Shown piece by piece: positions 10,277 through 64,000 of a stretch of 64,000 bases of DNA; position 1 is the stretch's first letter; every line of letters begins with the position of its first letter. The position numbers and the translations under genes are program-made. Source of the stretch: Ignavibacteriota bacterium (GTDB taxonomy: Bacteria; Bacteroidota; Ignavibacteria; SZUA-365); contig JACRFB010000063.1 in the NCBI GenBank assembly GCA_016218045.1, forward strand, positions 68,226 to 132,225, written 5' to 3'. Below the pieces are notes generated by a model. It was not told where the DNA came from and did no database searches. It saw only the letters and a program-made list of their open reading frames with translations.

Positions 10277-10756
10277 ATGAACGCACCGGTGCAGGGCGAC
10301 CTCCAGGCCGGATCCTCCCGATTCGCGATTGTCGCGAGCCGTTTCAACGACGTCATCACGCGCCGCCTGATAGAAGGCGCCACGGACTGCCTCCTGCGGC
10401 ACGGCGCCGATCCGTCGGCGATCGACACATACATCTGCCCGGGGTCCTTCGAAATTCCCCTGGTTGCATCTCGCATCGCCGCCACGAAAAAGCACGACGC
10501 AATCGTCTGTCTCGGCGCAGTGATCAAAGGAGACACGCCGCATAACGAGTATATCGCCGCGGAAGTGACAAAGGGCATCGCGCAGCTCATGCTGCAGCAT
10601 CAGCTCCCCATCTCGTTCGGTATCCTGACCACAAACACGCTCGAACAGGCGCTCGAACGCGCGGGACTCAAACACGGCAACAAGGGGTGGGAAGCCGCGC
10701 TCTCCGCTCTCGAAATGGTGAATCTTCTCGGTCAGATCGAACCCTCGGCAGCATGA
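10277..10756 (+). CDS. ribH: 6,7-dimethyl-8-ribityllumazine synthase
   Basis: RFAIVASRFNDVITRRLIEGA and 159 aa are typical of RibH. AGGAG RBS upstream. Confidence 0.85.
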   Translation: MNAPVQGDLQAGSSRFAIVASRFNDVITRRLIEGATDCLLRHGADPSAIDTYICPGSFEIPLVASRIAATKKHDAIVCLGAVIKGDTPHNEYIAAEVTKGIAQLMLQHQLPISFGILTTNTLEQALERAGLKHGNKGWEAALSALEMVNLLGQIEPSAA

Positions 10757-12996
10757 GTCACGTTTTCAGGACGCTGTTCCTGTTCCTTGCGGCCGGTACA
10801 GCACTCTTCGCACAGACCGGGTCGTGGAAGACCTACACCTCCATGCGGGAGGTGCGTGACCTTGCGGTCACCGGCCGCGACATTTGGGCGGCTACAGCGG
10901 GCGGCGTGTTCCGCTACGCGACGAGTGACGGCACATTCACATCATACACCAATGTTGAGGGACTCGCGTCGATCGATATCCGCGCGGTTGAAATCGATGC
11001 AAACGGCCGGATCATCGTCGGCGCGGCCACGGGTGCATTGAATATTCTCGAGCCCGGCGGCGGGTGGATTTCCGTGCTCGACATCGCACGCGCGACAGAC
11101 AAACCACAGCGGGGAATCAATGCCATCCGGACAAAGGAAGGCCGGATTTACATTGCCACCGACTTCGGTGTATCGGTGTACAATCCCGTGACACGCGAGT
11201 TCACGGAGACCTGGCAGAAATTCGGTGCCCTCCCCGCACAATCGAGCGTGAAGGACATATATTTTACCGGACAGTCGATCTGGATCGCGACAGCGGAAGG
11301 AATTGCACACGGTGATGCCGGAAGCGCGAACCTTCAGGATCCCTCGTCATGGACCTCGTACACTGCTGCCGACGGCCTCCCTTCGAAGGTCGTTTCTACC
11401 ATTGTGTCGTATGGCGGCACCATTGTTGTCGGGACGGACAAAGGGTGCGCGCGGCTTGAGTCCGGCTCGTGGCTTCCCGTCTATCTCGACGCGGGCGCAG
11501 TTCCGGTGCGCGAGATCATCACACGCGAGGACACGCTGTTTTTTATCACCGACGAGTATATGTACCGCGTGGAGGGGTCGGCTGTTCCACAACGCATCGG
11601 CCCTTCCTCCACCGATCCCCGTTATGGAAGAAACACCGTGTACACGCGGCTCGCGCTTATGGCCGGTGAAGCCGGTCCCCTGCTAGGATCGAGCAAGGGT
11701 GTGAGCCGTTACTCCACGGCAGGGTGGAGTTTTGTACAGCCGGACGGTCCGATTGCCAACCAGATTTCATCACTGGCCGTTGACGATTCCGGCGTAGTCT
11801 GGAGCGCGTCCCCGGGGAGCGGTGTGTCGGGATATAACGGCGTACAATGGCGCCAGTATTCCCCCTCCACAAATCCTCCGTTACCCGCTGAGGATCCGCG
11901 TGTTGTAGCGGCCGGACCGGATGGCTCGTTGCTCATCGGCACGTGGGGTTCCGGCGTGGTGCGTCGAAATGCCGACGGCACGCTGCACCGTTATGATCGC
12001 AACACACATCCCGAGTTTCCCGGAATTCCAGACAGTCCGGAATTCAGTCCCATCGGCGGGCTGATGACCGATACGAAGGGCAACATCTGGATGGTCCATC
12101 ATCGCGGTGCGAACGCGCGCATACTCAGTTGCCTGACCCGCGACGGCCGCTGGTACACCTATCGGAATCCCTACTACGACGACGCGTATGTGTACGGCCT
12201 CGGCATCGATCAGTTCGGCACGAAGTGGCTGTGGGGGGGATACAATTTTCTGGGCGTGATCACGTTTAACGAAAACGGCACGCTCGAATCCACCGGTGAC
12301 GACGTGTGGAAAAAAGTGGATCCCAACGCCTATCTCGCGGACAAGGTGCTTGTCGCCACAACCGACCGCCTCGGTGACGTGTGGATAGGAACGCCCCTCG
12401 GCCCGCGCACCGTGTACAATCCGTCGACACCCGAGCGGTCCTCGCGCACATGTTACAACACGCGGTGCAACCTCGAAGGTCTTGTCGTGAACTGCCTCGC
12501 CATCGATCCGGTCAACAACAAGTGGCTCGGTACAAACGCCGGTGTGTTTGTCCTGTCGTCGGACGGGAGCACCATCATCGAGCAGTATACGGTGGACAAC
12601 AGCCCGCTCATCGACAACGCTGTCAGGAGCATCGTTGTTCATCCCGCCACCGGCGACGCGTATTTCGGAACCAACAAGGGTATCTCCCGCCTTTCGACGC
12701 CGTTTGTACAGGCGGCAGCGACAGGGAAGGAACTCCGTGTGTCACCGAATCCCTTCCGTCCCGACATCGACGGCCAGGCGCGTATCGACGGACTCGCGGA
12801 GGGCTCCACCATGAAGATTCTCGCACCGTCCGGCTCGGTGGTGCGCGAGATCACGACACCGGGCGGTCGTATCGGATTCTGGGACGGAAAAGACGAGGAT
12901 GGTGAGTACGTCGCCTCCGGCGTGTATATCATCGCGGCCTACCAGGCCGACGGCTTGGAAACGCGGCTCGGGAAAATCCTGGTCGTAAGGCAGTAG
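10753..12996 (+). CDS. Two-component-regulator-propeller (Reg_prop)-type beta-propeller protein with T9SS C-terminal sorting domain
   Basis: ATGA overlap with ribH. Signal peptide FLFLAAGTALFAQ. Repeated W-containing propeller blades. C-terminus SPNPFRPD...GVYIIAAY...GKILVVRQ resembles Por_Secre_tail. Confidence 0.5.
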   Translation: MSHVFRTLFLFLAAGTALFAQTGSWKTYTSMREVRDLAVTGRDIWAATAGGVFRYATSDGTFTSYTNVEGLASIDIRAVEIDANGRIIVGAATGALNILEPGGGWISVLDIARATDKPQRGINAIRTKEGRIYIATDFGVSVYNPVTREFTETWQKFGALPAQSSVKDIYFTGQSIWIATAEGIAHGDAGSANLQDPSSWTSYTAADGLPSKVVSTIVSYGGTIVVGTDKGCARLESGSWLPVYLDAGAVPVREIITREDTLFFITDEYMYRVEGSAVPQRIGPSSTDPRYGRNTVYTRLALMAGEAGPLLGSSKGVSRYSTAGWSFVQPDGPIANQISSLAVDDSGVVWSASPGSGVSGYNGVQWRQYSPSTNPPLPAEDPRVVAAGPDGSLLIGTWGSGVVRRNADGTLHRYDRNTHPEFPGIPDSPEFSPIGGLMTDTKGNIWMVHHRGANARILSCLTRDGRWYTYRNPYYDDAYVYGLGIDQFGTKWLWGGYNFLGVITFNENGTLESTGDDVWKKVDPNAYLADKVLVATTDRLGDVWIGTPLGPRTVYNPSTPERSSRTCYNTRCNLEGLVVNCLAIDPVNNKWLGTNAGVFVLSSDGSTIIEQYTVDNSPLIDNAVRSIVVHPATGDAYFGTNKGISRLSTPFVQAAATGKELRVSPNPFRPDIDGQARIDGLAEGSTMKILAPSGSVVREITTPGGRIGFWDGKDEDGEYVASGVYIIAAYQADGLETRLGKILVVRQ

Positions 12997-31291: not shown

Positions 31292-32218
31292 TTATTTCAC
31301 ACCCACATGCGAGAGCATTTCCTTGATGCCTCCAAGCGATCCCATGACACCGGACGCTTCATACGGCAGAAACACGACTTTCTGGGCACCATTTGCGATA
31401 TCCTTGAGCGACTCGAGGTATTTCATCGCGATGAGGTAGCTCGACGGATCACCGCCCACCGTCACTTTCAGCGATTCGGTGACGAGAGAAATTGCCTGCG
31501 CCTCGGCATTCGCGACACGCATACGCGCCTCTGCCTGACCCTCGGCCTGCAGGATGGCGGACTGCTTCTGCCCCTCGGCCGACACGATGGCCGACTGCTT
31601 CTCGCCCTCGGCACGAAGGATGGCCGACGACTTCTCGCCTTCGGCCTGCAGGATGGCGGCGCGGCGGTTCCGTTCGGCGGTCATCTGCTTTTCCATGGTG
31701 AGGCGGATATCTTCTGGCGGCAGAATGTTGCGCAGTTCGATGCGCATGACTTTGACGCCCCACTTGTCGGTGGCGCTGTCGAGGGATGCGCGGAGCTTGG
31801 TGTTGATCACTTCGCGGCCCGCGAGCGTGTGGTCGAGATCCATCTCGCCGATGACGGCGCGCAGGGCGCTGAGCGTGAGCTGCTGAATACCGCGTTGCAG
31901 TGTCGAAATTTCGTACACGGCTTTGACGGGATCGATGATCTGCCAGTACACGATGCAGTCCACTTCCATCGTCACGTTGTCGCGCGTGATCACCGGCTGC
32001 GGTTCGATGTCGGTGAGCTGTTCGCGAAGGTCGAGTGTCGCGCGCACGCTGTCGATGAAGGGCACGATGATGTTCAGACCGGAGATCGCGGTCTTGTGAT
32101 ATTTCCCGAGGCGCTCGATGATCTTGACCGAGGCCTGGCTGACCATCTTGATGCTGCTCAACGCCACGATGAAGGCGAAGAAGACAACAATCACGATGAT
32201 GACGGTGGCGGCTTCCAT
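31292..32218 (-). CDS. SPFH/band-7 (stomatin-like) protein
   Basis: Internal start MEAATVIIVIVVFF preceded by GGAGGA. SPFH domain. C-terminal AEGEKSSAILRAEGEKQSAIVSAEGQKQSAILQAEGQAEA repeats. Confidence 0.75.
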   Translation of the reverse strand: MEAATVIIVIVVFFAFIVALSSIKMVSQASVKIIERLGKYHKTAISGLNIIVPFIDSVRATLDLREQLTDIEPQPVITRDNVTMEVDCIVYWQIIDPVKAVYEISTLQRGIQQLTLSALRAVIGEMDLDHTLAGREVINTKLRASLDSATDKWGVKVMRIELRNILPPEDIRLTMEKQMTAERNRRAAILQAEGEKSSAILRAEGEKQSAIVSAEGQKQSAILQAEGQAEARMRVANAEAQAISLVTESLKVTVGGDPSSYLIAMKYLESLKDIANGAQKVVFLPYEASGVMGSLGGIKEMLSHVGVK

Positions 32219-48139: not shown

Positions 48140-51100
48140 ATGAGAACCATGTTCGACCGCATCATTCTTGCGTGCTGTATAACGCTCGCTCTCGCCGCCG
48201 CCTCGTTTGCGCAGAAGGGTGACGAGAAGAAAAAATCCGATGATCCCTTCTCGCAGGGTACCTTCACGGGATTGAAGTTCCGGGGCATCGGACCCGCTCT
48301 GACCTCGGGGCGTATCGTCGACTTTGCCGTGGATCCGGGCAACCGCGCGCGCTACTTTGTGGCTGTCGCATGCGGCGGCATCTGGCGCACCACAAACGCC
48401 GGCACGAGCTACGAACCGGTGTTTGACGGACAGATGTCGTTCTCGATCGGCTGTCTCGCCATCGATCCGAACAACCCGCACACAGTGTGGGCGGGCACGG
48501 GTGAAAACAACAGCCAGCGAAGTGTCTCCTACGGCGACGGTGTGTATCGCTCCGACGATGGCGGCAATACATGGAAATGTATGGGTCTGAAAAAATCGGA
48601 ACACATCGGAAAGATTGTCATCGATCCGACAAATTCCCTTGTGGTCTACGTCGCGGCGCAAGGTCCGCTGTGGGGGCCGGGCGGAGACCGCGGCCTCTAC
48701 AAAACAACGGACGGCGGCAAGACGTGGAACGCCGTGCTCACCATCAGCGAGAACACGGGCATGACGGATCTTGTCATGGATCCCCGCGATTCGAAGGTGC
48801 TGTATGCCGCCTCCTATCAGCGCCGCAGGCATGTGTGGACGCTTATCAACGGCGGTCCCGAAGCCAACATCTACCGCAGCACCGACGCAGGCGCAAGCTG
48901 GGACACGCTGCGCAGCGGCCTTCCCGACGGCGACAAGGGCAGGATCGGACTCGCGATCTCTCCGGTCAATCCCGATATCGTCTATGCAACCATCGAGGCG
49001 TCTGAAGGCAAGGGCGGTTTCTTCCGCAGCACTAACAGGGGCATGACCTGGGAGAAACGCAACGACTTCGTGTCGGATGCCGCGCAGTATTATCAGGAGC
49101 TCGTGTGTGATCCGAAGGATGCGGACCGCGTGTATTACCTGCACACGATTCTCATGGTCACCGACGACGGCGGCAAGAACTGGCGCGCACTCGGGAACCG
49201 CCACAGGCATGTCGACGATCATGCCATGTGGATCGATCCACGTGATCCCGCGTATTACCTCGTGGGCGGCGACGGCGGCATCTACGAAAGTTTCGATCGC
49301 GGTGCGACGTGGAAGTATGCACCGAATCTTCCCGTGACGCAGTTCTATCGCGTGGCGGTGGACAATGCCGAACCGTTCTATAACATATACGGCGGCACGC
49401 AGGACAACTTCAGTCTCGGCGGCGCGTCACGGACAAACAAATCCGACGGAATCATGAGCGAGGACTGGTTCCTCACCAATGGCGGCGACGGTTTTGAATC
49501 ACAGATCGATCCCACTAATCCCGACATCGTGTACGCGCAGTCGCAGTATGGCGGACTCGTCCGTTTCGACAAGCGCAGCGGCGAGCGTCTCGACATACAG
49601 CCGCAGCCGGCGCCGGGTGAAGAGCCGTATCGGTGGAACTGGGATTCGCCGCTGCTTATCAGTCCGCACAATCCCTCCCGGTTGTACTTCTGCGCGAACC
49701 GTGTGTTCCGCAGCGACGACCGCGGCGCGTCGTGGCGTGCGGTCAGTCCGGATCTCTCGCGGCGTTTAAATCGCGATTCACTCCCCGTGATGGGCCGCGT
49801 CTGGCCGCCGGAAGCCGTCGCCAAAAATGCGTCCACATCCTTCTACGGCAACATCGTTTCCTTTGCGGAATCGCCACTGAAGGAGGGCCTGCTGTTTGTG
49901 GGAACGGACGACGGACTGATCCAGATGAGCCCCGACGGTGGCGCTACCTGGAGGCGTGTCGAGAGCGTGACGGGCGTGCCCGACCTCGCGTACGTCTCGT
50001 GTGTGCTCGTGTCGCAACATACCGCGGGCCGCCTGTACGTATCGTTCGACAATCACAAGATGGCCGACTTCGCGCCCTACGTGTACAGCAGCAGCGACGA
50101 GGGCAGGACATGGAAGTCCATCACCTCGAATCTCCCCGCCAACGGCGCTGTCTACACCCTTGCCGAGGATCACGTCAATCCCAACCTGCTCTTTGCAGGC
50201 ACCGAGTTCGGCATCTTCTTCTCGAACGACGGCGGCGCGAAGTGGATACAGTTGAAGGGTGGAATGCCGCCCATCGCGATACGCGACATCGCGGTGCAGA
50301 AGCGGGAGAACGATCTCGTGCTCGCATCGTTCGGACGCGGCTTCTATGTGCTCGACGACTACTCCGCGCTGCGCACGGCCACGGCGGAACAGCTCGGCTC
50401 AGCCGCGGTGATCTTCCCTGTGCGTGATGCGCTGATGTACATTCCGAGCACGGCACGGTACAAGGGCTATCAGGGCGAAACGTTTTTCACCGCGCCCAAT
50501 CCGGATTTCGGCGCGGTGTTCACGTATTACGTGAAGGACGTCCCGAAGACACGCAAACAACTGCGAAAGGAGGCGGAGAAGGAGGCGGCAAAGAAGAACG
50601 TCGCCCCGCGGTATCCAAGCATCGACGAGTTGCGCGCAGAGGACGAGGAAAAACCCGCGCAGTTCATCTTCACCATCACCGACGCCGCGGGTGCGCCCGT
50701 ACGTCGTCTCTCGACCGCCGCATCAAAAGGCATACAGCGTATCAGTTGGGATTTGCGTTATCCGGATATCAGTCCCGTTCGCGACGTCTCGTCCGCCAAC
50801 AGGGGATCGGGCATGTTTGTCACGCCCGGCGAGTATGCGGTCTCGCTGTCGCTGCTGCACAACGGTCTCGAGACGCCGCTTGCGGGACCCGTCCGATTCA
50901 CCGCCCGCGTACTCAACAACACCACGCTCCCCGCCTCCGACAGGGCCGCGCTTGTGTCGTTCCAGAAGGACGTGGCCACACTGCAGGCCATTGTGCTCGC
51001 CGCCGACCGCTACGCCGGAGAGCTGGCGACACGCCTCGGTTACATCAAGGGTGCGCTTGAAACGGCGACCCGCGCCGACGCCGCGATGCGCGCGCAGCAC

Positions 51101-51424
51101 GGAGCAATGGACAGCACGCTGCGTGTGCTGCGCCGCGCGTTGAACGGTGATCCGGCGAAGTCGCGCCGCAACGTGATAGAAGCACCATCCATCGTCGGCC
51201 GCCTGCAGAACATGGTGTACAGCCAGTGGTCGTCCACCTCTGCGCCAACGGGATTGAACCAGCAGGAATACCGTCACGTGAGCGCCGAGCTGCGCACCGT
51301 CATGGAGACGCTACGGCGGCTGGCCGACCGCGATCTGCCCACGCTCGAGAGGCAGCTCGATACCATCGACGCGCCGTGGACACCCGGCCGCATGCCCGAC
51401 GTCGAAGCGATTCCAAAACGCTGA
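48140..51424 (+). CDS. Secreted sortilin/VPS10-like BNR(Asp-box)-repeat protein (GH74-like two-propeller architecture)
   Basis: Signal peptide ending AAASFAQ. At least 10 Asp-box motifs (SDDGGNTW, TTDGGKTW, STDAGASW, STNRGMTW, TDDGGKNW, SFDRGATW, SDDRGASW, SPDGGATW, SSDEGRTW, SNDGGAKW). Confidence 0.7.
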   Translation: MRTMFDRIILACCITLALAAASFAQKGDEKKKSDDPFSQGTFTGLKFRGIGPALTSGRIVDFAVDPGNRARYFVAVACGGIWRTTNAGTSYEPVFDGQMSFSIGCLAIDPNNPHTVWAGTGENNSQRSVSYGDGVYRSDDGGNTWKCMGLKKSEHIGKIVIDPTNSLVVYVAAQGPLWGPGGDRGLYKTTDGGKTWNAVLTISENTGMTDLVMDPRDSKVLYAASYQRRRHVWTLINGGPEANIYRSTDAGASWDTLRSGLPDGDKGRIGLAISPVNPDIVYATIEASEGKGGFFRSTNRGMTWEKRNDFVSDAAQYYQELVCDPKDADRVYYLHTILMVTDDGGKNWRALGNRHRHVDDHAMWIDPRDPAYYLVGGDGGIYESFDRGATWKYAPNLPVTQFYRVAVDNAEPFYNIYGGTQDNFSLGGASRTNKSDGIMSEDWFLTNGGDGFESQIDPTNPDIVYAQSQYGGLVRFDKRSGERLDIQPQPAPGEEPYRWNWDSPLLISPHNPSRLYFCANRVFRSDDRGASWRAVSPDLSRRLNRDSLPVMGRVWPPEAVAKNASTSFYGNIVSFAESPLKEGLLFVGTDDGLIQMSPDGGATWRRVESVTGVPDLAYVSCVLVSQHTAGRLYVSFDNHKMADFAPYVYSSSDEGRTWKSITSNLPANGAVYTLAEDHVNPNLLFAGTEFGIFFSNDGGAKWIQLKGGMPPIAIRDIAVQKRENDLVLASFGRGFYVLDDYSALRTATAEQLGSAAVIFPVRDALMYIPSTARYKGYQGETFFTAPNPDFGAVFTYYVKDVPKTRKQLRKEAEKEAAKKNVAPRYPSIDELRAEDEEKPAQFIFTITDAAGAPVRRLSTAASKGIQRISWDLRYPDISPVRDVSSANRGSGMFVTPGEYAVSLSLLHNGLETPLAGPVRFTARVLNNTTLPASDRAALVSFQKDVATLQAIVLAADRYAGELATRLGYIKGALETATRADAAMRAQHGAMDSTLRVLRRALNGDPAKSRRNVIEAPSIVGRLQNMVYSQWSSTSAPTGLNQQEYRHVSAELRTVMETLRRLADRDLPTLERQLDTIDAPWTPGRMPDVEAIPKR

Positions 51425-54744: not shown

Positions 54745-56460
54745 ATGCGTGGTCGTGCTGTGTGGTGCGGAGTGTGTGTGGGTGTCATGCTGCTGTGTGC
54801 AGGCGCGGTGCGGGCGCAGGACAGTTTCTTCGACCAGGCGTTGCGCGGGCCGCGCGGGGTGTGGTCCACAGGCATGGGACTGTCGGGCGTCGCGCGCGCG
54901 ACACCCGTGGTGGGCTTCTCGTACAATCCCGCGGCGTTTGCGCACGCGACACGGACCACTGCGACGCTGTTCCGCGCGCCGACATACTCGTGCTGCGATC
55001 CGATCGTGCTCCGCACAGCTTCGGTGGTGACTCCCATGCCGCTGCTTGGGGGTGTTATAGGATTGGAGGTACTTGACGACAACTTTGGAGAAGTGTATTT
55101 CGGCAGCGATGGGAACCTCGGCCTGTATGCCGACTCACGGATTATCGGCGTCGCCCTCGGATTCGGCACATCTCTCGGCGAAGACGTGGCGATAGGCGCG
55201 GCCTTCCGCGTGTTGGAAAACACCATAGAAGCTGATCGACAGGAAAGTGGCCTGCACAGCACTGCTCATCACATCGGAATGAGCATTGGGGTGCAGTACA
55301 ATCCCGACATCCTCGACAGACGGCTGCGGGCCGGTCTGGCGATCCTGGAAATGGGTCCGGAAATCGTGTACATCGACGAGGCGCAAGCGGACCCCGCGCC
55401 GACCTCGCTGCGTTTGGGTCTGGACGCGGAGCTTGTCGACGATGGCACCGTGTCGCTTCCGCTTACAGTGGAAGTGTCGAAGGGACTCATCAAGCGGGGG
55501 CACGAATATCGTGCACGTCCCTCCTGGGAGGCGCTGTTCAGCGACTGGAATGCGGTGCCGCGCGACATGGTGTTGCATCTCGGAATCGGATTCCTGTGGC
55601 GGCCACTCGCGCTCGGAAACGGGTGGACGTTCGCAACAGGCGTGGCCGTCGGCAATGCGAGTGTGGGACCGGAATATCCCACCCTCAATTTTCGCAACCA
55701 GTTCACAGCGTCGTACACCACTTCAGTAGAAAAAGACGGATACAGCGTGGAAGTGGGTGTGGCGACAAGCTGGCATCGATTGCCGATATACAATTACTCG
55801 GGGATAGAACCGCCCACGCTGCCGAACGACATGTTCGAGGCGACGGTGTCGGTGCCGTGGGCGCCGGGTGCCGCCACGATCGCCGCTGCTCCCGCCGTGG
55901 CGCTCGAGCACATCACACTATCCCTCGGCGCCGGTTTCCGCTCCTATAGCGGATGGGCCGCGCCCGCTGAGGGCATCGTGTATCGCGACGCGCTCGACCT
56001 GGAAGGCGACGCCTCCTTTGCGCTGTCGCCACACAGCGCCGTGGCCTTGACGCTGCAGCACACACGCGGCGACGTCGACGTAATGTTTCCGATGAACGAG
56101 ACAGATCCGCCCGTCGTGTACGACACGTACCGGCATCGCGGCTGGACCGTGCTTTCGTCGTATCGGCTGCATCCGCTCGAGCAGTTCCGCGCGCTCTTCA
56201 TCGGCGCGGGGGCCGGCATCGTCTACGACCAGCATGGCACCTCGAACCGGCTGCGCATGCTCGCTATGCGGAAGGCGCTGCATCCCGCCTTCGCCGTGGA
56301 GGCCGGTGTCGACTGGCCCGCGGCGGGACACCTTGTGCTCACTCCCCACGTGCGCTGGACACTCGTGCCCGGAAAAATCGAACACGGCGAACCACTGCGC
56401 CTCGGCGCGTATCACGCACTTTCTTTCGGTGTGCGTGTGGGATGGCGGGAGGGAGAGTAG
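54745..56460 (+). CDS. Hypothetical secreted/outer-membrane protein upstream of giant T9SS cargo gene
   Basis: Internal start MRGRAVWCGVCVGVMLLCAGAVRAQ (signal peptide). Alternating hydrophobic patterns suggest a beta-barrel. No catalytic motifs. Confidence 0.3.
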   Translation: MRGRAVWCGVCVGVMLLCAGAVRAQDSFFDQALRGPRGVWSTGMGLSGVARATPVVGFSYNPAAFAHATRTTATLFRAPTYSCCDPIVLRTASVVTPMPLLGGVIGLEVLDDNFGEVYFGSDGNLGLYADSRIIGVALGFGTSLGEDVAIGAAFRVLENTIEADRQESGLHSTAHHIGMSIGVQYNPDILDRRLRAGLAILEMGPEIVYIDEAQADPAPTSLRLGLDAELVDDGTVSLPLTVEVSKGLIKRGHEYRARPSWEALFSDWNAVPRDMVLHLGIGFLWRPLALGNGWTFATGVAVGNASVGPEYPTLNFRNQFTASYTTSVEKDGYSVEVGVATSWHRLPIYNYSGIEPPTLPNDMFEATVSVPWAPGAATIAAAPAVALEHITLSLGAGFRSYSGWAAPAEGIVYRDALDLEGDASFALSPHSAVALTLQHTRGDVDVMFPMNETDPPVVYDTYRHRGWTVLSSYRLHPLEQFRALFIGAGAGIVYDQHGTSNRLRMLAMRKALHPAFAVEAGVDWPAAGHLVLTPHVRWTLVPGKIEHGEPLRLGAYHALSFGVRVGWREGE

Positions 56461-56580
56461 GGAGTAGGGAGTGGGGAGTGGGGTAGAGGGGAAGAGTGGG
56501 AGACGGGTAGAGGGGGACAGCGGGAGAGTGGGAGAGCGGGACAGCGGGAGCAGGGATTGGCGGCGTGGTGATTTGCCAGT
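56461..56580 (+). repeat. G/A-rich low-complexity repeat block (GGGAG-type units, G-quadruplex-capable)
   Basis: gggagtagggagtggggagtggggtagaggggaag...cgggacagcgggagcaggg, more than 12 GGG runs in 120 nt. Contains the 14-mer cgggacagcgggag, which recurs inverted at 63434-63447. Confidence 0.6.
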
Positions 56581-56701: not shown

Positions 56702-59700
56702 ATGGCATTGACGGGATCTGTTGGTACCATCTCACACGCACGCAGGCTGTACTGCACAGGTAAAAACAGCACTCACGCAGCGCTGATTGCCATTGTAACC
56801 TGGATGATGTTCCCCGGCGCTGCCGCCGGACAGGATGTGCTGCTTCGCCGCACGAGTCCGGACCCGTACTTCGAGGAGAACCGCGGTCAGATCATGGACG
56901 AACACGGAAAGACGCGCCGCGATGTGCTCTTCGCCCAGCGTGACGGCGGTGCTTCTTTGTACCTGACGCGCGGCGGCTTCGAGTATGTGTTCGCGCGCGT
57001 GGAAAATCCTGATGCACCTGTCAGCGAAGCCACGGGCAGAGCCATGAGTGACCGTGATTCTCACCCGGTGATAACCGCGTACCAACGCGTGGACATGCGC
57101 TTCCGCGATCCATCGCCCTCCGTTCGTGTGCGAGGGATTGAAGAAAAGGACTACCTGCTCCACTATTACACCGTGGGTGCCGGACCGGACGCGGAGACCG
57201 TGCGCACCTTCGCGGGTGTCGTGTACGAGAACGTGTACCGCGGCATCGATCTCGTCCTGCGCGCGGAGCCGCGCGGGATAAAATACCACTGGGTTGTGCA
57301 TCCAGGCGCGTCAGTCGGCGACATCCGTGTATTCTGGTCTGGAGCGGACCGGCTGCAGCAGGAGCCGGATGGGGGACTGCGTGTGATCAGCACACTCGGC
57401 GAACTGTCGGAGGCACCGCCCGTTGCCTGGCAGGACACACCGACGGGACGACGGCCCGTGCAGGTTTCATCTCGTGTGGTTGGAATGGACATACATCTCG
57501 ACTGCGGGGACTACGATGCTGAACGCAAACTCACCGTTGATCCGCGTGTTATCTGGGCGACCTATTACGGTGGTGATCTGATTGATCGAGCGTGCGCGGT
57601 TGATACCGATGCCGATGACAACGTGGTTGTAGTTGGCGAAACAACAAGTCTCGCGGCCATCAGTACACCGGGCACATTTCAGGCAGTTCACGCCGGTGCC
57701 TGGGACGGTTTTATGGCAAAGTTCGACAGTGCCGGGAATCGACTTTGGAGTACCTACGTCGGTGGCGCAGCATCCGATAATCTTGTCAGTGTGTCCTGCG
57801 ATGGAAGTGGCATCATGGCCGCTGGCTCCACAACGAGTGCGGGCATGGCGACGAGTGGTGTACATCAGACAACACTGGGGGGGATCGCCGACATACTGCT
57901 CCTTCGGTTTAGTGCTGCCGGTGTGCGCCTGTGGGCGACCTATTACGGAGGCCCCGGGGCCGAGAGCCCGAGAGCCGTATCGCCGGGAGGCGGCGGGCGG
58001 GTGCTTGTCTCCGCCAGAACAAACAGCGGCTCGGGCATAGAAATCGGTGGGAGCTGGGGTGGCTATTCGGGAGGCACCGACGGCGCTGTGGCGGTTTTCA
58101 ACGCCAGCGGTGCTTTGCTTTGGGGGCGCTACATCGGCGGTCCCGATGAGGATCAATGCCACGGCATCACAACAGACGGTGCGCGCATTTTTGTCGCCGG
58201 TTCCACCCGGAGCACCACGGGGCTCGCAACACCGGGCGCCTTTCTCACAACGCAGCAAGGCGACTGGGACATGTTCCTGGCGTGTGTCGCGTACAACGGG
58301 ACAATCGACTGGGCAACATATTACGGCGGATCCGGGCTCGAATCCGATATAGCCAGTGGCATCCGGTACACAGGCGGCAACCGGATCATCATCGGAGGAA
58401 AAACAACGAGCACCTCCGGTATGACCACAACCGGCGTATTTCAGGAGACGCATCAAGGCGGGAGCGCCGATGGATTTCTCGCCGCCTTCGACAGCGCAGG
58501 GCATCGACACTGGGGTACCTACATCGGGAGCGCAGGGTGGGAAAGCATCACCGGACTCGATGTCGACGCAGAAGGCGCCATCATGATCTTCGGTCAGGCC
58601 ACGGCCACTTCGAGTCTGGCGAACTTCAACAATGTGCATCAGTCCACCCTCGCCACAGATGGACTATTTGTCGGGCGTGTGGAGGGAGAGGGGACGGATC
58701 TGCGCTGGTGTACCTTTTACGGCGGCTCACAGACATGGCCGGAAATGTGGGGTGCCTCGAACGGGTGTGTCGATCTCCGGGGTAATGTGTACGTCTGCGG
58801 GACCACAAACAGCCAGACGCTCATCGCCTACGGCAACCCGCATCAAGGCGCATTTGGCGGCGGATCCAGCGACGGCTGTCTTGCGAAATTTCTTGGAGGG
58901 AAGAATCGCATTGTGACCAGAGACGGTGCGCCTACGTATTGTGAGGGGGATACTCTCATCGTGCACTACGACCTCGCCGGCGTGTATGGTGATCACAATA
59001 TGTTCCATGCGCAGTTGTCGGATTCGACCGGGAACTTCGGTGCGCCAGTCATCATCGGTTCGGTGAAATCATGGATGCAGGATTCCATCATTGCGGTGAT
59101 TCCCGTCGGCACTCCGGGTGGTAGTGCGTACCGCATCCGTGTCGTGTCGACGAATCCCAGACTCGCAGGAACCGAGACGAGGGCCTTCCGTATTGTTCCG
59201 CTCCCTGTTGCCATTGTTGCACCTGCGGGCACCGTGTCGATCTGCGAAGGGCAGAGCTTGATATTACGTGCTGACAGTGCGATGAATTGCACGTACGTGT
59301 GGGAAGAGCAGACACGCGGTATGGAGGGCGTGGGTCCATCGCTACTCGTCACACGCACGGGAAAGTATCGCGTGGTGGTGACGAACACAGGCGGCTGCCG
59401 TGCCTGGTCGCCGTGGACGGAGGTAGTCGCTTCACCGCGTCCGCTCGCGACTATCACACCGTGGGATGTGCAAGGAGTCTGTGAAGGGGACAGCGTCGTT
59501 CTGTCAGGACCCGACAGCACAGGGTACACATTTGAGTGGTCCACCGGCGAAACAACACGTGTGCTCCGGGTGAGCAAGCCGGGACTCTATCGCCTTGTGG
59601 TGCGGAATGCCGCGGGGTGTTCGGACACGTCGGCACCCGTGCGCGTTGTCGTGTATCCGTTGCCGGTGTTGTCGGTGGCGGGGCGCGGGCGTGCCTGTCA

Positions 59701-62700
59701 GTACACTGTGTGGTCGTACCGAGTGACGAAACCCGCCGGGACGTCGCTCGTGTGGACGGCCACGGGCGGGGCGGTGCTGCAGGCACAGGGCGACAGCGCG
59801 GTGGTGCAGTGGACGTTGCCGGGGATGCGCATGGTGCAGGTGACATGCCGTGTGGACTCGAGCGGCTGCACGTCGACGGCAACGCTGCCGGTGCAAGTGG
59901 ATGCATTCGTTCCACCCGCGATCGAGGCGGATCCGAAACACATCTGCCGCGGCAGCGAACTGCGGCTGAAGGTGCAGCGGGGCTACGCGCGTGTTGCATG
60001 GAACACAGGGGCGACGACGGACGAGATCGTTGTCCGCACCCCCGGCATGTACCGCGTGCGTGTGGAGACGTCGGACGGCTGCGCGGGCGAGGACTCGGTG
60101 CGCATCACGGTTGTCGATCCACCCAATGCACAGGCGCCAACCGACACGACGATCTGCGGCGAGTCGGAGGTGCTGCTTACGGGTGATGCACGTGACGGCA
60201 CACCGCCGTACGGCTACCGGTGGATCGGTGAGAATGTGACAGACGAGTACGCGCGCACGACCACGGCCCGTCCGTCAACGGCGGGGATCTATGTGCTGGA
60301 GGTGACGGACGCGAACGGTTGCACGGGGCGCGACACACTGCGTGTGCAGAAGCGTGCGGCGCCGCCGGTGGGGATCCGCGCGCTGGGTGCGCTGCGTTTC
60401 TGTCTGGGCGACAGCGTGACTCTGGAGGCGGATGCGGGCTTTGTGCGTTATGAGTGGAGCGACGGACAGCGGGGCCGTCGCGTCGTGATCCGCCGTGCGG
60501 GCATGTATCATGTGCTTGCCACGGATACGTCGGGCTGCACGGCGCGGTCGGATCCGCTCACGGTGGAGGTGAAGGCGATCGCCGTGAACATCACTGCTCT
60601 GGGCCCGTTGCGTTTCTGCGCGGGCGACAGCGTGGTGTTGCGCGTGGAGGGCGCGCCCGCGCGTGTGCGCTGGAACACGGGCGATAGTACACGATACCTC
60701 GTCGTCCGCAGCACGGGCACGTACTGGGCGCGGGGCTGGGACACGTTCGGCTGCGAGGGGGCCTCGCTGCCGCTGCAGGTGACAGTGAATCCGCTGCCAC
60801 GTGTTGCGATCGGCGGTCCGGCGAGTGTGTGCGCGGGCACAGTTGGCAGGCACTGGCTGCGCGAGGTGCGGGGATTGCGCGTACTCTGGCGCATCGAGAA
60901 CGGGACGCTGCTCACCGGCGAGAATGCGGACACGGTGGACGTGCGCTGGTCCGTCGCGGGGAACGGCCGCCTCGTGCTCACGTGTACGGACACAACAACG
61001 GGCTGCACGGACAGCACGATTGCACCCATCATCATAGGGACCTCGCTCACTCCCGTGATCGTCGGTCCAACGGCCATCTGCGCGGGCGACACGGCGGTGT
61101 TCGACGCGGGGGACGGGTACGCGTTCTACACGTGGCGTAACGAGGCGGACAGCATTGTCGGCACCAGATCACAACTCCGCGTTACAACCGCGGGCCGTTA
61201 CCGCGTGTTTGTGCGTGATGCGGGTACCTGCGAGGGGGATGCCTCGCACAGACTCATCGTTCATCCGAAGCCCGGTGTATCGATCGTCGGAGCCGCCTCG
61301 TTCTGCACGGGCGACAGTGTACTGCTCTCCGCATCGGGAACATTTATCCAGTATGTCTGGCGGAATGAATCGGATACTGTTGTCGGAAATACACCGACGT
61401 ACACCGTTCGGACACCAGGTCTGTACACACTCGCCGTGACAGACGGGAACGGGTGTACAGCCCGCTCCACGCCGCACGCAGTAAGCGAACTCGCACACCC
61501 CGTCGCGGCGATCGCGGGACCTACGAGCGCGTGCAGCGGAACGGTGCAGAGGTATGGAACACCGCCTGGGACGGGCGTCGCATATCGATGGAGCGTGCTG
61601 AATGGCACGACGCTGTCCGCCTCCGATGCGGACACGTTCACCGTGCGCTGGGACGCGCCCGGGACGGGTCGTGTCGTGCTCACTGTCACGAACGCTGCGT
61701 GCAGCGCAAGCGACACACTGGACTTGACGGTGGGATCCTCGCTCACACCTTCCATCGCGGGCAGATCACGTATCTGCGCGGGCGACTCGGCCCTGCTCGA
61801 TGCGGGCGCGGGCTACAGGAGTTACCTGTGGAGATTGCCGAACGGCGACAGCGCAGACACACGGTCGATCCGCATCGCGGCAACGGGTGTGTACACAGTG
61901 ACCGTGTACGACGAGGGCGGGTGTTCAGGATCGGCGCGGCATCTCCTGCGTGTGGATGTGCTCCCCGCACCCGCGATCGCGGGTCCACAGGAGATCTGCG
62001 CGGGCGACACGGCGGTGCTCGATGCCGGTGTGTTCGCAGGTGTGTACACCTGGCGTGACGCAATGGGGACCATGCTCGGCGTGCAGCGCACACTCGCCGT
62101 CACACAGACGGGAGTGTTCACAGTAACAGTCACCGACACGAACAGTTGCACGGGCTCGTCGCCACCGCACGCGCTTCTTGTGCATCCGCGTCCATCAAAA
62201 CCCGTCGTCACCCTCCGCGGCGACACCCTCGCCACCGTGGCGGGATACGCGTACCGCTGGTATCGCAACGACACACTCATCGCGGGCGCCGCATCCGACA
62301 CACACATCGCGGCCTCACCCGGCTGGTATCACGTGTCGATCACCGACACTCACGGCTGCACGAACGAGGCGGATCCCATCGAATACACCGGCGCGGCGCG
62401 TGTGGCCACGGCGCACATCATCCTTCCATTCCTCGAGGCAGCTCCCGGCGAGCGCGTCGAGATCCCGGTCGTGATCGCCGCCTCCACGCACCTCGATGCG
62501 GCGGACGTGCGCTCGTTCCGTGCCACACTGCGCTACCACGCCGGCGTGCTCGCACCGATGGGTTCCACGCCGCCAGGTGTGTTATCCGGTGCCGAACGTC
62601 TCATCCCGTTCACGGCCGATACCGCGTCCCGTCCGCTGTCGCCCGGGCCCGTGTGGCCGCCGGTGGCGACACTCGTGTTCCGCGCGACACTCGGATCCGT

Positions 62701-63091
62701 GTCACAGACGCCGCTGACACTTGAGGACATGAACTTCGGCGCGACCGACGTCCGCGTGACGGTGCAGCCGGGCGGCTTCCGGCTCCTCGTGTGCAGAGAG
62801 GGAGGGGAGCGGTTGTTCTCGGACAGCGGGCGGCTTTCTATCGGACAGAACAGTCCGAATCCATTCAACGCGCAGACGACGATCGAGTACGAGACCATCG
62901 AGAACGGTCCGGTGTTCCTCGCCGTGTACGATCTGCTCGGCCGCGAGACCGCCGTGCTTGTCGACGCGCCGCTTGTGCCCGGCCGGCGCCGCGTACTCTT
63001 CGACGCGCAGGCCCTTCCCTCCGGACAGTACATCGCCGTGCTCCGCAGCGGCAGCGGTGTGCGCACGATGCGGATGGTTGTTGCGAAGTGA
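56702..63091 (+). CDS. Giant (2129 aa) T9SS-secreted surface protein: N-terminal SBBP-type beta-propeller repeats + about 14 tandem Ig-like two-Cys repeats + Por_Secre_tail C-terminal domain
   Basis: YYGG...D.A..VD.D.DNVVVVGET.S...... repeats (SBBP, PF06739-like). About 80-aa repeats with a conserved C.GDS..L.A......Y.W......G.Y.V.VTD.NGC..S pattern. C-terminus GQNSPNPFNAQTTIEYE...GQYIAVLRSG...MRMVVAK. Confidence 0.7.
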   Translation: MALTGSVGTISHARRLYCTGKNSTHAALIAIVTWMMFPGAAAGQDVLLRRTSPDPYFEENRGQIMDEHGKTRRDVLFAQRDGGASLYLTRGGFEYVFARVENPDAPVSEATGRAMSDRDSHPVITAYQRVDMRFRDPSPSVRVRGIEEKDYLLHYYTVGAGPDAETVRTFAGVVYENVYRGIDLVLRAEPRGIKYHWVVHPGASVGDIRVFWSGADRLQQEPDGGLRVISTLGELSEAPPVAWQDTPTGRRPVQVSSRVVGMDIHLDCGDYDAERKLTVDPRVIWATYYGGDLIDRACAVDTDADDNVVVVGETTSLAAISTPGTFQAVHAGAWDGFMAKFDSAGNRLWSTYVGGAASDNLVSVSCDGSGIMAAGSTTSAGMATSGVHQTTLGGIADILLLRFSAAGVRLWATYYGGPGAESPRAVSPGGGGRVLVSARTNSGSGIEIGGSWGGYSGGTDGAVAVFNASGALLWGRYIGGPDEDQCHGITTDGARIFVAGSTRSTTGLATPGAFLTTQQGDWDMFLACVAYNGTIDWATYYGGSGLESDIASGIRYTGGNRIIIGGKTTSTSGMTTTGVFQETHQGGSADGFLAAFDSAGHRHWGTYIGSAGWESITGLDVDAEGAIMIFGQATATSSLANFNNVHQSTLATDGLFVGRVEGEGTDLRWCTFYGGSQTWPEMWGASNGCVDLRGNVYVCGTTNSQTLIAYGNPHQGAFGGGSSDGCLAKFLGGKNRIVTRDGAPTYCEGDTLIVHYDLAGVYGDHNMFHAQLSDSTGNFGAPVIIGSVKSWMQDSIIAVIPVGTPGGSAYRIRVVSTNPRLAGTETRAFRIVPLPVAIVAPAGTVSICEGQSLILRADSAMNCTYVWEEQTRGMEGVGPSLLVTRTGKYRVVVTNTGGCRAWSPWTEVVASPRPLATITPWDVQGVCEGDSVVLSGPDSTGYTFEWSTGETTRVLRVSKPGLYRLVVRNAAGCSDTSAPVRVVVYPLPVLSVAGRGRACQYTVWSYRVTKPAGTSLVWTATGGAVLQAQGDSAVVQWTLPGMRMVQVTCRVDSSGCTSTATLPVQVDAFVPPAIEADPKHICRGSELRLKVQRGYARVAWNTGATTDEIVVRTPGMYRVRVETSDGCAGEDSVRITVVDPPNAQAPTDTTICGESEVLLTGDARDGTPPYGYRWIGENVTDEYARTTTARPSTAGIYVLEVTDANGCTGRDTLRVQKRAAPPVGIRALGALRFCLGDSVTLEADAGFVRYEWSDGQRGRRVVIRRAGMYHVLATDTSGCTARSDPLTVEVKAIAVNITALGPLRFCAGDSVVLRVEGAPARVRWNTGDSTRYLVVRSTGTYWARGWDTFGCEGASLPLQVTVNPLPRVAIGGPASVCAGTVGRHWLREVRGLRVLWRIENGTLLTGENADTVDVRWSVAGNGRLVLTCTDTTTGCTDSTIAPIIIGTSLTPVIVGPTAICAGDTAVFDAGDGYAFYTWRNEADSIVGTRSQLRVTTAGRYRVFVRDAGTCEGDASHRLIVHPKPGVSIVGAASFCTGDSVLLSASGTFIQYVWRNESDTVVGNTPTYTVRTPGLYTLAVTDGNGCTARSTPHAVSELAHPVAAIAGPTSACSGTVQRYGTPPGTGVAYRWSVLNGTTLSASDADTFTVRWDAPGTGRVVLTVTNAACSASDTLDLTVGSSLTPSIAGRSRICAGDSALLDAGAGYRSYLWRLPNGDSADTRSIRIAATGVYTVTVYDEGGCSGSARHLLRVDVLPAPAIAGPQEICAGDTAVLDAGVFAGVYTWRDAMGTMLGVQRTLAVTQTGVFTVTVTDTNSCTGSSPPHALLVHPRPSKPVVTLRGDTLATVAGYAYRWYRNDTLIAGAASDTHIAASPGWYHVSITDTHGCTNEADPIEYTGAARVATAHIILPFLEAAPGERVEIPVVIAASTHLDAADVRSFRATLRYHAGVLAPMGSTPPGVLSGAERLIPFTADTASRPLSPGPVWPPVATLVFRATLGSVSQTPLTLEDMNFGATDVRVTVQPGGFRLLVCREGGERLFSDSGRLSIGQNSPNPFNAQTTIEYETIENGPVFLAVYDLLGRETAVLVDAPLVPGRRRVLFDAQALPSGQYIAVLRSGSGVRTMRMVVAK

Positions 63092-63108: not shown

Positions 63109-63212
63109 GACGATTGGACGATCAGATGATTAGACGATCAGACGATTGGACGATCAGACGATTAGACGATCAGACGATTGGACGATCAGACGATTGGACG
63201 ATCAGACCATCC
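63109..63212. repeat. Tandem 8-bp microsatellite (GACGATYR)x12, with a 16/32-bp higher-order periodicity
   Basis: gacgattg gacgatca gatgatta gacgatca gacgattg gacgatca gacgatta gacgatca gacgattg gacgatca gacgattg gacgatca, then a decaying copy gaccatcc. Confidence 0.85.
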
Positions 63213-63376
63213 GCTTCCTCCGGCGATCCAAGCCGCGTATGCGCGATGCGCGAGAAAACTCCGACAGGGCGACCGGCGGTCGCCCGACACCGCCGCGAAC
63301 CACGCATGCAACACCGCACAAAACAGATCAGTCACCCACGTCCGGAACGGGAGAGGGCCGGGGTGAGGGTGCGCGT

Positions 63377-63505
63377 CCCGCTCTCCCGTCGCGCTTCGAC
63401 TCCGCTCAGCGAGACACTATTTCGTTGTTCCGCTCCCGCTGTCCCGTCGCGCTTCGACAAGCTCAGCGAGACACAGGGTCGTGGTCCCGCTGTCCCGCTG
63501 TCCCG
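63377..63505. repeat. C-rich repeat block: two about 42-bp direct repeats plus (CCCGCTGT)n, inverse-complementary to the 56461-56580 G-rich block
   Basis: cccgtcgcgcttcgac-NN-gctcagcgagacac occurs twice. ctcccgctgtcccg at 63434-63447 is the exact reverse complement of 56539-56552. cccgctgtcccgctgtcccg at 63486-63505. Confidence 0.6.
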
Positions 63506-63531
63506 AGTTCCCGCTACACATCCGAACGAAA

Positions 63532-64000
63532 TCACTGCACGATGAATCGACGCAGGTAGCGCTCAGGTCGGTCACCATCAGGAAGGTCGATGGTGATGAG
63601 GAAGAGGCCCGGCGTGAGGTGATGGGTGGATAAATTGTGGAGACGGTGCTCGCCAGGCTCGAACTCGAGGTGGTTCTGTTGCATCACACGACCAAGCACG
63701 TCGGTCACGGTCACGAGCGCACGACACGCGTGCTGCGACGCGGGCAGGTACACGGGCAGAACACCATCACCGCCGTTTGCGTGCAGGGGATTCGGATAGA
63801 CGGATCCGATACTCAGACCTTCGGGTGTGACGGCATCGACGGACGTTGCCACATTGTATCCGCTTCCTGTCAGCGCGATAGAGACAACCGGCGTCAATTG
63901 ATCAAGCGTCAGGCGCAGGTAGGCCTGGCGCATGCCGTTATTGCGGGGAACAAAGGTGACAGGCACAATAATCGAATCGCCCGGCCGTAGTGTGACAGGC
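63532..64000 (-). CDS. C-terminal end (T9SS sorting domain) of a second secreted protein, convergent to the giant gene; 5' part outside window
   Basis: Open frame continues to the window edge. SVYPNPLHANGG...ALVTVTDVLGRVM...PGLFLITIDLP... is Por_Secre_tail-like. Confidence 0.5.
   Translation of the reverse strand, partial: PVTLRPGDSIIVPVTFVPRNNGMRQAYLRLTLDQLTPVVSIALTGSGYNVATSVDAVTPEGLSIGSVYPNPLHANGGDGVLPVYLPASQHACRALVTVTDVLGRVMQQNHLEFEPGEHRLHNLSTHHLTPGLFLITIDLPDGDRPERYLRRFIVQ

Follow-up and report, generated by a model that had tools for sequence, protein, structure and literature searches.

A candidate stalked surface protein with a propeller head and fourteen immunoglobulin-like repeats in an Ignavibacteriota bacterium

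Introduction

What does the longest gene in this part of an Ignavibacteriota genome encode, and where would its product act? We analyzed a 64,000-nucleotide (nt) stretch of DNA, referred to here as the window, that covers positions 68,226 to 132,225 of contig JACRFB010000063.1 (assembly GCA_016218045.1, a metagenome-assembled genome). An open reading frame (ORF) at 56702..63091 on the plus strand codes for a protein of 2,129 amino acids (aa). A first-pass annotation, made from the sequence and its translations, had described the product as a surface protein exported through a type IX secretion system (T9SS), with SBBP propeller repeats followed by 14 immunoglobulin (Ig)-like repeats, and had offered an adhesin, a gliding-associated protein, or a polymer-binding protein as its likely role.

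We tested each element of this architecture. A T9SS sorting domain, an SBBP propeller, 14 Ig-like repeats, and the overall layout expected of a secreted or surface protein were all found; the repeats match Ig-like and PKD profiles and the C-terminus matches a T9SS hidden Markov model (HMM), as that annotation had expected. We propose that the product is a T9SS-exported, probably cell-anchored, stalked binding protein, and we hold this reading of the sequence with moderate confidence. An adhesin or polymer-binding role is plausible.

Results

The gene and its domain order

The extent and rank first given for this 6.4-kb gene were exact. The ORF begins with ATG and is the longest in the window, where the next longest codes for 1,094 aa. 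The G+C content of the window is ~61%, so other frames contain chance ORFs of up to ~400 aa; a frame of 2,129 aa with strong family matches is not a chance ORF. A public NCBI protein (P0001), encoded on a contig of 143,698 bp, is identical to the product over its full length (100%). The gene is genuine and already annotated, and it joins a widespread family.

From the N-terminus, the protein consists of a signal-peptide-like segment, DUF7948, a seven-bladed SBBP propeller, a 99-aa beta-domain, 14 Ig-like units, a cohesin-like domain, and a type A T9SS C-terminal domain (Table 1). Three of these modules (DUF7948, the post-propeller domain, and the cohesin-like domain) had gone unnoticed. The N-terminal third, previously assigned to SBBP repeats, does contain the propeller, but DUF7948 also fills it. 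The remainder, previously read as repeats of about 80 aa, does contain 14 units of 70-83 aa, but also the post-propeller and cohesin-like domains. At the DNA level the repeats are divergent, as had been noted: the longest direct-repeat family inside the gene is 59 nt long with 68-83% identity, and Tandem Repeats Finder reported three two-copy micro-repeats and otherwise no array.

The sorting domain and the route to the cell surface

The C-terminus scored well above the cut-off of TIGR04183, the T9SS type A profile (Table 1), in line with the tail recognized by eye in the first pass. The P-N-P, G, and G-x-Y positions of this domain are invariant in 17 homologues, and the AlphaFold2 (AF2) model gives it seven strands. 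Pfam and NCBIfam searches of the protein found no type B/CHU_C domain (PF13585/TIGR04131) and no SprB repeat (PF13573). These domain types have different consequences in Flavobacterium johnsoniae. Type A domains there use the general PorV shuttle and lead to static anchoring or release depending on the domain, whereas the type B domain of SprB directs its cargo to the gliding track, and type B domains need an adjacent cognate PorP/SprF gene (PMC12618676).

These distinctions bear on the gliding role that had been among the first suggestions, in which the gliding machinery would move the protein along the surface as an SprB-type adhesin. In favor of this, the product is a large T9SS cargo that contains Ig-like repeats, and a few family members (P0085 and P0097) have CHU_C type B domains and the source label 'gliding motility-associated-like protein'. 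The present protein contains neither SprB repeats nor a type B domain, and no PorP/SprF-like gene lies next to its own, so a gliding role is unsupported. We rejected it on domain content and consider it the least probable of all the roles weighed here.

The window also encodes PorZ, a component of the T9SS attachment complex, 44 kb upstream of the gene. The match covers positions 3-757 of the 757-position profile, and PF21544 scored 60.3 bits. One report (PMC8545088) describes PorZ as delivering anionic lipopolysaccharide (LPS) to the sortase PorU, which anchors cargo. The presence of PorZ speaks for a functional T9SS that includes an attachment complex, and in such a genome the sorting domain would probably be removed and the protein anchored to LPS.

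The product might instead be exported and released as a soluble binding or scavenging protein. The two fates of type A domains in F. johnsoniae (PMC12618676) count in favor of release and against our preference for anchoring, and nothing in the tested sequence separates the two outcomes. Three observations favor a tether: the window encodes PorZ, whose role is in anchoring; GhpA, the closest relative by structure, is attached to cells; and a disulfide-rich stalk of this length, with the head at one end and the sorting domain at the other, best suits tethering. We therefore treat release as a minority possibility, and anchoring remains the preferred outcome.

An Ig-like array related to the stem of GhpA

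The 14 Ig-like units share 14-45% identity in pairwise comparisons. All of them have W32, G52, and C64 (unit numbering), 13 have C13, and an HMM built from the units recovers all 14 in the query. The Ig-like or PKD identity proposed at the outset was borne out by profile searches. Over the whole protein, the summed score for Ig_7 ('Ig-like domain, CHU_C associated') is 64 bits against a cut-off of 27.3; nine of the 14 units match Ig_7 singly at E<=0.1, each below the cut-off. Unit 11 alone passes PKD (34.5 bits against 23.5) and PKD_6 (30.5 against 25). Searched singly, units 3, 4, and 8 matched no Ig-like or PKD profile: unit 3 matched nothing, and units 4 and 8 matched other families only marginally (E above 0.1). 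A weak resemblance to both Ig_7 and BiPBP_C is seen in unit 14. Units 8-9-10 are 41%, 45%, and 36% identical to units 11-12-13, which suggests an ancient duplication of a triplet.

Among solved structures, GhpA is by far the best match. The whole protein matched it in phmmer at E 2e-112, and the array alone matched it (9flp) at E 1e-118, with 12-13 stretches aligned along the GhpA stem (13 for the array). We modeled aa 1680-2129 with AF2 (predicted local distance difference test score, pLDDT, 88.7) and searched the model with Foldseek. The top eight matches were eight GhpA fragments solved by cryo-electron microscopy (cryo-EM), at E 4e-17 to 4e-12. GhpA is a 5,898-aa T9SS substrate of Aureispira sp. 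CCB-QB1 that remains cell-attached. It combines 52 Ig-like repeats with an adhesin-like hook at its N-terminal, distal end. The rigid stem is built from seven copies, and cryo-EM shows disulfides that join neighboring Ig-like domains; PorP-like and PorE-like genes, ghpB/C, flank its gene (bioRxiv 10.1101/2024.01.29.577165).

This kinship raises the idea of a grappling-hook-like appendage, in which copies of the protein would be bundled through their Ig-like stems into a rigid fiber with a ring of propellers at its tip that catches particles or cells. The units belong to the GhpA stem repeat family by both phmmer and Foldseek, the two proteins have the same polarity, the Cys-rich repeats match the inter-domain disulfides of GhpA, and a cohesin-like base could mediate protein-protein contacts. 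Other features point away from it. The array has 14 repeats against 52, the head is a propeller unrelated to the adhesin-like hook, and no PorP- or PorE-like genes flank the gene, unlike ghpB/C. Ig_7 repeats are also common to many T9SS proteins. Aureispira genomes hold separate DUF7948-SBBP genes (L020, L028, and L036) besides GhpA, which indicates that GhpA and DUF7948-SBBP proteins are distinct families. We consider a bundled appendage unlikely, and a single anchored stalk remains our preferred reading.

A cysteine register that suggests staples between domains

Each repeat was originally described as having two conserved Cys. This holds for units 1-13, in which the first Cys lies in a C-x-G-D-S/T motif and the second in a G-C pair ~51 residues on, but not for unit 14, which has the second Cys only. 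The post-propeller domain, directly ahead of the array, has a first-type Cys only (C747). The total is 14 Cys of the first type, from the post-propeller domain and units 1-13, against 14 of the second type, from units 1-14, with the two sets offset by one domain. In the AF2 model of unit 13, five strands lie between its two Cys, which in a seven-strand Ig topology places them at opposite ends of the domain. The register suggests that the first Cys of one domain bonds the second Cys of the next, stapling successive domains together. Disulfides between neighboring domains have been reported for GhpA, in keeping with this proposal.

We examined the same positions across 120 homologues with 598 units in total. 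Sixteen units have a second but no first Cys, and every one of them closes its run, a place that 24% of all units occupy. Units without a second Cys gave a less regular picture, as only seven of the 14 are first in their run. Too few units lack a Cys for joint loss of the two to be read as a correlation (phi 0.04); position in the run was the more informative measure.

The motif D-[ST]-[AILVMT] is the O-glycosylation sequon of Bacteroidota. The protein contains 29 copies against 8.8 +/- 2.9 in shuffled sequences, a three-fold enrichment, and 23 of these lie in the Ig array. Eight copies sit within the conserved C-x-G-D-S/T motif of the first Cys, so the enrichment may simply reflect structural conservation.

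The post-propeller domain, which would donate the first Cys of the series, had no match in a Pfam search. It is kept at the same position in 41 of the 120 homologues, and its strands in the AF2 model have pLDDT values of ~80-93. Its single Cys lies in a C-x-G-D-T motif and is invariant across 36 aligned homologues (C703 of the A3 consensus).

The N-terminal head

The protein starts with what looks like a Sec signal peptide. By eye, a basic n-region (R14, R15, and K21) precedes the hydrophobic segment AALIAIVTWMMFPGAAA and then G-Q-D; the hydrophobic stretch is 17 residues long, and an AAA-G site can be seen. Homologues likewise hold ~40 residues ahead of the conserved FxENxGQ start of DUF7948 (A3 consensus).

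DUF7948 matches its Pfam profile from position 1 to 213 of 214 and is all-beta in the AF2 model. No solved relative of this domain was found when a profile of 15 homologues was searched against Protein Data Bank (PDB) sequences (best E 0.7). The propeller that follows has seven blades of 62-67 aa, each opening with W[ASGC][TR][YF][YVI]G (W-x-T-Y-Y-G-G type). Against a cut-off of 20.5, Pfam SBBP (PF06739) scored 22.1 bits for the full protein and 29.0 for a sub-piece. With DUF7948 above its gathering score and SBBP repeats after it, the protein belongs to the DUF7948-SBBP family.

We modeled the head (aa 45-838) with AF2 from 35 homologues (mean pLDDT 84.6). The model is all-beta, and its propeller blocks mostly exceed pLDDT 90. 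The top five Foldseek matches were all entries of the enzyme CylK (E 3e-21 to 9e-20), the sole strong matches among solved structures; generic propeller enzymes (oxygenases and sialidases) came next at E ~1e-4. A phmmer comparison of the head with CylK gave E ~1e-17 over the blades only, in several shifted registers. It aligned aa 224-486 of the head with CylK 279-638 and left the CylK N-terminal domain unmatched. The CylK active site lies at the interface with that N-terminal Ca-binding domain and needs its Arg105 (PMC8916777).

These matches leave room for the head to be an enzyme and the protein a surface catalyst, either alkylating like CylK or acting like another propeller enzyme. That CylK is the only strong solved match, followed by oxygenases and sialidases, speaks for such a role. 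The similarity is at the level of repeats and blades, however, the domain that supplies Arg105 in CylK (PMC8916777) has no counterpart here, and no catalytic family appeared among the Pfam or NCBIfam matches of the protein. We rejected CylK-like catalysis and consider an enzymatic head very improbable. We continue to read the head as a putative binding module.

A divergent cohesin-like domain between stalk and sorting domain

A beta-sandwich domain of ~140 aa separates the array from the sorting domain, to which it is joined by a short linker of low model confidence. It occupies this position, directly ahead of the sorting domain, in 20 of the 120 homologues. It gave no Pfam match itself, including no score for Pfam Cohesin (PF00963). 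A profile of 15 sequences (A4) was more informative: all seven of its matches in the PDB are cohesins (best E 0.0036), and four of its 15 members touch Pfam Cohesin, at E>=0.01. Among 1.84 billion cluster representatives, 2,509 proteins matched A4 at E<=1e-3, of which 1,251 reached E<=1e-10. Several strong matches carry arrays of Pfam Cohesin domains (P0138, 338.9 bits, 10 copies; P0154, 164 bits, six copies; P0186, 143.6 bits, three copies), and P0121 passes the Pfam Cohesin cut-off (29 bits) inside its A4-matched stretch. By these profile comparisons, the domain appears to be a divergent cohesin, and its family grades into bona fide Pfam Cohesin.

Among the best 150 of the 2,509 matches, the domain ends ~90-100 residues from the C-terminus in the great majority, and the exceptions are mainly multi-copy proteins. 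As a separate observation, a cassette defined by a cohesin-like domain ~90-100 aa ahead of the C-terminus recurs across the 2,509 clusters in proteins of 219-2,713 aa (P0121-P0266 among them), some of which have 6-10 tandem cohesins and a T9SS tail, a scaffoldin-like arrangement.

Family and distribution

The DUF7948-SBBP head was confirmed at no fewer than 571 loci in species-representative genomes. The hosts include Chitinophagales (Taibaiella and Flavipsychrobacter), Flavobacteriales, Saprospiraceae including Aureispira, Cytophagales, Ignavibacteriota, Kapabacteria, and Chlorobiota. Apart from the identical entry, the best homologues match 72-88% of the query length at 26-31% identity. The nearest relatives (~30% identity) have all of its modules in the same order, with 12 Ig units; unit counts across the family run from 1 to 30, compared with 14 here. 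About 12 of the 120 best matches end in a type B (CHU_C) tail instead of type A. A literature search for studied DUF7948 or SBBP T9SS proteins found none among the papers covered.

A few members fall outside these hosts. L013, L039, L040, L052, L067, and L073 lie on contigs labeled Hyphomicrobiales, Ectothiorhodospiraceae, Chromatiales, or Akkermansia, and P0011 is in a eukaryotic protein set. The distribution is otherwise strictly within the Fibrobacterota-Chlorobiota-Bacteroidota (FCB) group, so these members look mis-binned or contaminating.

Table 1. Features of the gene, its product, and related genes in the window (positions in nt of the window; scores in bits against cut-off)
Feature	Position	Strand	Evidence
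Signal-peptide-like N-terminus, aa 1-41	56702..56824	+	By-eye reading of translation
DUF7948 (PF25778), all-beta, aa 57-281	56870..57544	+	Pfam 138.7 bits vs 27
Seven-bladed SBBP beta-propeller, aa 285-736	57554..58909	+	Blade motifs, Pfam SBBP, AF2, Foldseek
Post-propeller beta-sandwich domain, 99 aa, aa 737-835	58910..59206	+	Homologue conservation, AF2
Array of 14 Ig-like units, aa 836-1900	59207..62401	+	Unit alignment, Ig_7/PKD profiles, phmmer to GhpA, AF2/Foldseek
Divergent cohesin-like beta-sandwich, ~140 aa, aa 1897-2036	62390..62809	+	Profile A4 matches, homologue conservation
Type A T9SS C-terminal sorting domain, aa 2052-2127 of 2129	62855..63082	+	TIGR04183 42.8 bits vs 23
PorZ, T9SS attachment-complex component	10687..12996	+	NF052228 (T9SS_PorZ equivalog) 335.3 bits vs 260
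Upstream outer-membrane protein, PorV/PorQ-like first half	54745..56460	+	NF033709 70.7 bits vs 90; PF19572 28.5 bits vs 27

Neighboring genes and flanking DNA

The gene upstream had been put forward as a candidate partner. Its likeliest start is an internal Met at 54745, with a signal peptide after it. The first half of the product resembles PorV/PorQ below the NF033709 cut-off, the remaining ~300 residues match no family, and the product is about twice as long as the 326-position PorV/PorQ profile. A tblastn search of 84 related loci found no relative of this gene within 6-8 kb of the homologues, and at three homologous loci the upstream genes are unrelated to it. In addition, a type A sorting domain needs no dedicated neighboring shuttle gene (PMC12618676). 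We rejected this gene as a dedicated partner on its sub-cut-off PorV/PorQ score and the lack of relatives at the 84 loci. The search for a PorP/SprF-like neighbor, suggested along with it, was equally negative: the neighbors (an S9 peptidase, the PorV/PorQ-like barrel, and a convergent partial cargo gene) gave no PorP/SprF or OmpA-like match, unlike the neighbors of ghpA.

The convergent ORF (63535-64000, minus strand) runs off the window. It has a T9SS type A tail at 19.8 bits against 23 and a choice-of-anchor D fragment, and it probably codes for another T9SS cargo.

Scans for Rfam families, sigma-70 promoters, and terminators around the gene found no match. The gene is flanked by inverted tandem arrays with an 8-nt period, GGGAGAGC/GGGACAGC upstream on the plus strand (56447-56555) and the complement TCCCGCTG downstream (63370-63515); the best pair of inverted arms is 34 nt long with 82% complementarity, 6.9 kb apart. 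The motif GGGACAGCGGGA, allowing up to one mismatch, occurs nine times in the window against 0.49 expected, and seven of the nine flank the gene. A tandem repeat of GACGATTGGACGATCA (6.2 copies, 92% matches, 8-nt sub-period) begins 18 nt past the stop codon, at 63109-63207. In the non-coding DNA before the convergent ORF (63376-63491), TCCCGCTNTCCCGTCGCGCTTCGAC...GCTCAGCGAGACAC occurs twice with a spacing of 57-58 nt (families D15 and D17). Arrays with a 7-8-nt period were present at five of the 84 related loci, at no fixed position, and may be a generic intergenic feature. We therefore rejected the flanking arrays as an element specific to this gene.

Elsewhere in the window, 48140-51424 (+) codes for a 1,094-aa BNR/Sortilin-Vps10 repeat protein that scored 169.5 bits against 175 for the F510_1955 glycosylhydrolase family, and a profile search detected no T9SS tail in it. 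At 4585-7443 (+) lies a 952-aa fusion of PD40/TolB-like propeller repeats and an Omp85-type barrel. A 33-nt tandem repeat at 31539-31657 (3.6 copies, 80% matches, score 154) lies inside long ORFs that overlap on both strands.

Discussion

We propose the following model for the product. The Sec pathway would carry the protein to the periplasm, where the T9SS translocon would recognize the type A C-terminal domain and hand it to the PorV shuttle. The sorting domain would then probably be cut off and the new C-terminus fixed to anionic LPS at the cell surface. The cohesin-like domain would lie nearest the membrane, and the 14 Ig-like domains would form a stalk of ~50-60 nm, assuming ~4 nm per domain. 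This stalk would probably be stiffened by inter-domain disulfides, in which the Cys following the first strand of one domain would pair with the Cys preceding the last strand of its successor. DUF7948 and the seven-bladed propeller would form a head at the distal tip, the ligand-binding end, by analogy with GhpA, in which the N-terminal module is distal. We infer the secretion, the preference for anchoring over release, the disulfide pattern, the dimensions, and the binding function from the sequence and the comparisons described above.

Beside the two fates of type A domains, several observations weigh against this model. The signal peptide was judged by eye only. Pfam Por_Secre_tail (PF18962) narrowly misses its cut-off of 27 bits, with 20.7 for the whole protein and 25.4 for the isolated tail. 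The T9SS components in the window are PorZ and the sub-threshold PorV/PorQ-like gene only; PorU, SprA, and PorK-N are not among its genes. The disulfide register is a matter of sequence bookkeeping and strand parity, not of model coordinates. Seven of the 14 units without a second Cys are internal to their run and not first, and the last unit, which resembles BiPBP_C, may be a different sub-type. Our literature search found no experiment on a DUF7948-SBBP member, which makes the term 'binding head' an analogy.

From most to least plausible, the alternatives are release, a bundled GhpA-like appendage, a head that is an enzyme, and an adhesin for gliding. The enzymatic and gliding readings are disfavored because the protein lacks the features that define membership in those groups.

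The model leaves knowledge of T9SS cargo unchanged, and the gene was already annotated publicly. What it adds is a full domain map for a widespread, unstudied family, including two modules (the post-propeller domain and the divergent cohesin-like domain) that have no Pfam match in this protein. It also ties the family stalk to GhpA, the only solved structure of this repeat type, and yields a testable rule for stiffening: staples would run from domain to domain, the domain ahead of the array would supply a donor Cys, and the final unit would have none. The cassette of cohesin and sorting domain (~2,500 clusters) may point to scaffolding systems on the surface of FCB-group cells. A bolder idea, which we offer as a long shot, is that the protein is a subunit of a so far unseen surface appendage in Ignavibacteriota, Kapabacteria, and Chitinophagales. 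Such an appendage would have a disulfide-stapled GhpA-type stalk, possibly bundled, with a DUF7948-propeller tip and a cohesin-like docking base, and would capture particles, polymers, or cells. If so, thousands of uncharacterized DUF7948-SBBP genes would represent a class of catching organelles, 'propeller-tipped' relatives of grappling hooks.

We compared the protein to known systems. Its domain order is identical, over the full length, to that of the known family of 'SBBP repeat-containing' or 'T9SS type A sorting domain-containing' proteins (PF25778, PF06739, Ig_7/PKD_6, and Por_Secre_tail). It shares with CylK (PDB 7fh6 and 7ron) a seven-bladed propeller of the same repeat type. CylK, however, is a biosynthetic enzyme and not a T9SS cargo, and an N-terminal Ca-binding beta-roll with the catalytic Arg105 stands where the unrelated DUF7948 precedes the propeller here.

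SprB and RemA of F. johnsoniae resemble the protein as very large, repeat-rich surface cargo of the T9SS, and RemA has a type A sorting domain (PMC12618676). SprB differs by its SprB repeats, type B domain, and cognate SprF, and RemA by its lectin domain, none of which is present here. Cellulosomal scaffoldins and the scaffoldin-like proteins of Cloacimonadota, which have tandem cohesins and a T9SS domain (PMC8542988), offer another parallel in that a cohesin-like domain stands directly before the T9SS sorting domain, but the present protein has a single divergent copy below any Pfam Cohesin score, and no dockerin partner came to light, no search aimed at one having been made.

The last comparison is with GhpA. 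GhpA has a stem of 52 repeats, an adhesin-like hook in place of DUF7948 and the SBBP propeller, PorP- and PorE-like neighbors, and a proven heptameric assembly, and the alignments between the two proteins cover the Ig region only. In both proteins, an N-terminal head and a C-terminal T9SS domain stand at opposite ends of a stem of homologous Ig-like repeats, and GhpA is the best solved match by sequence and by fold.

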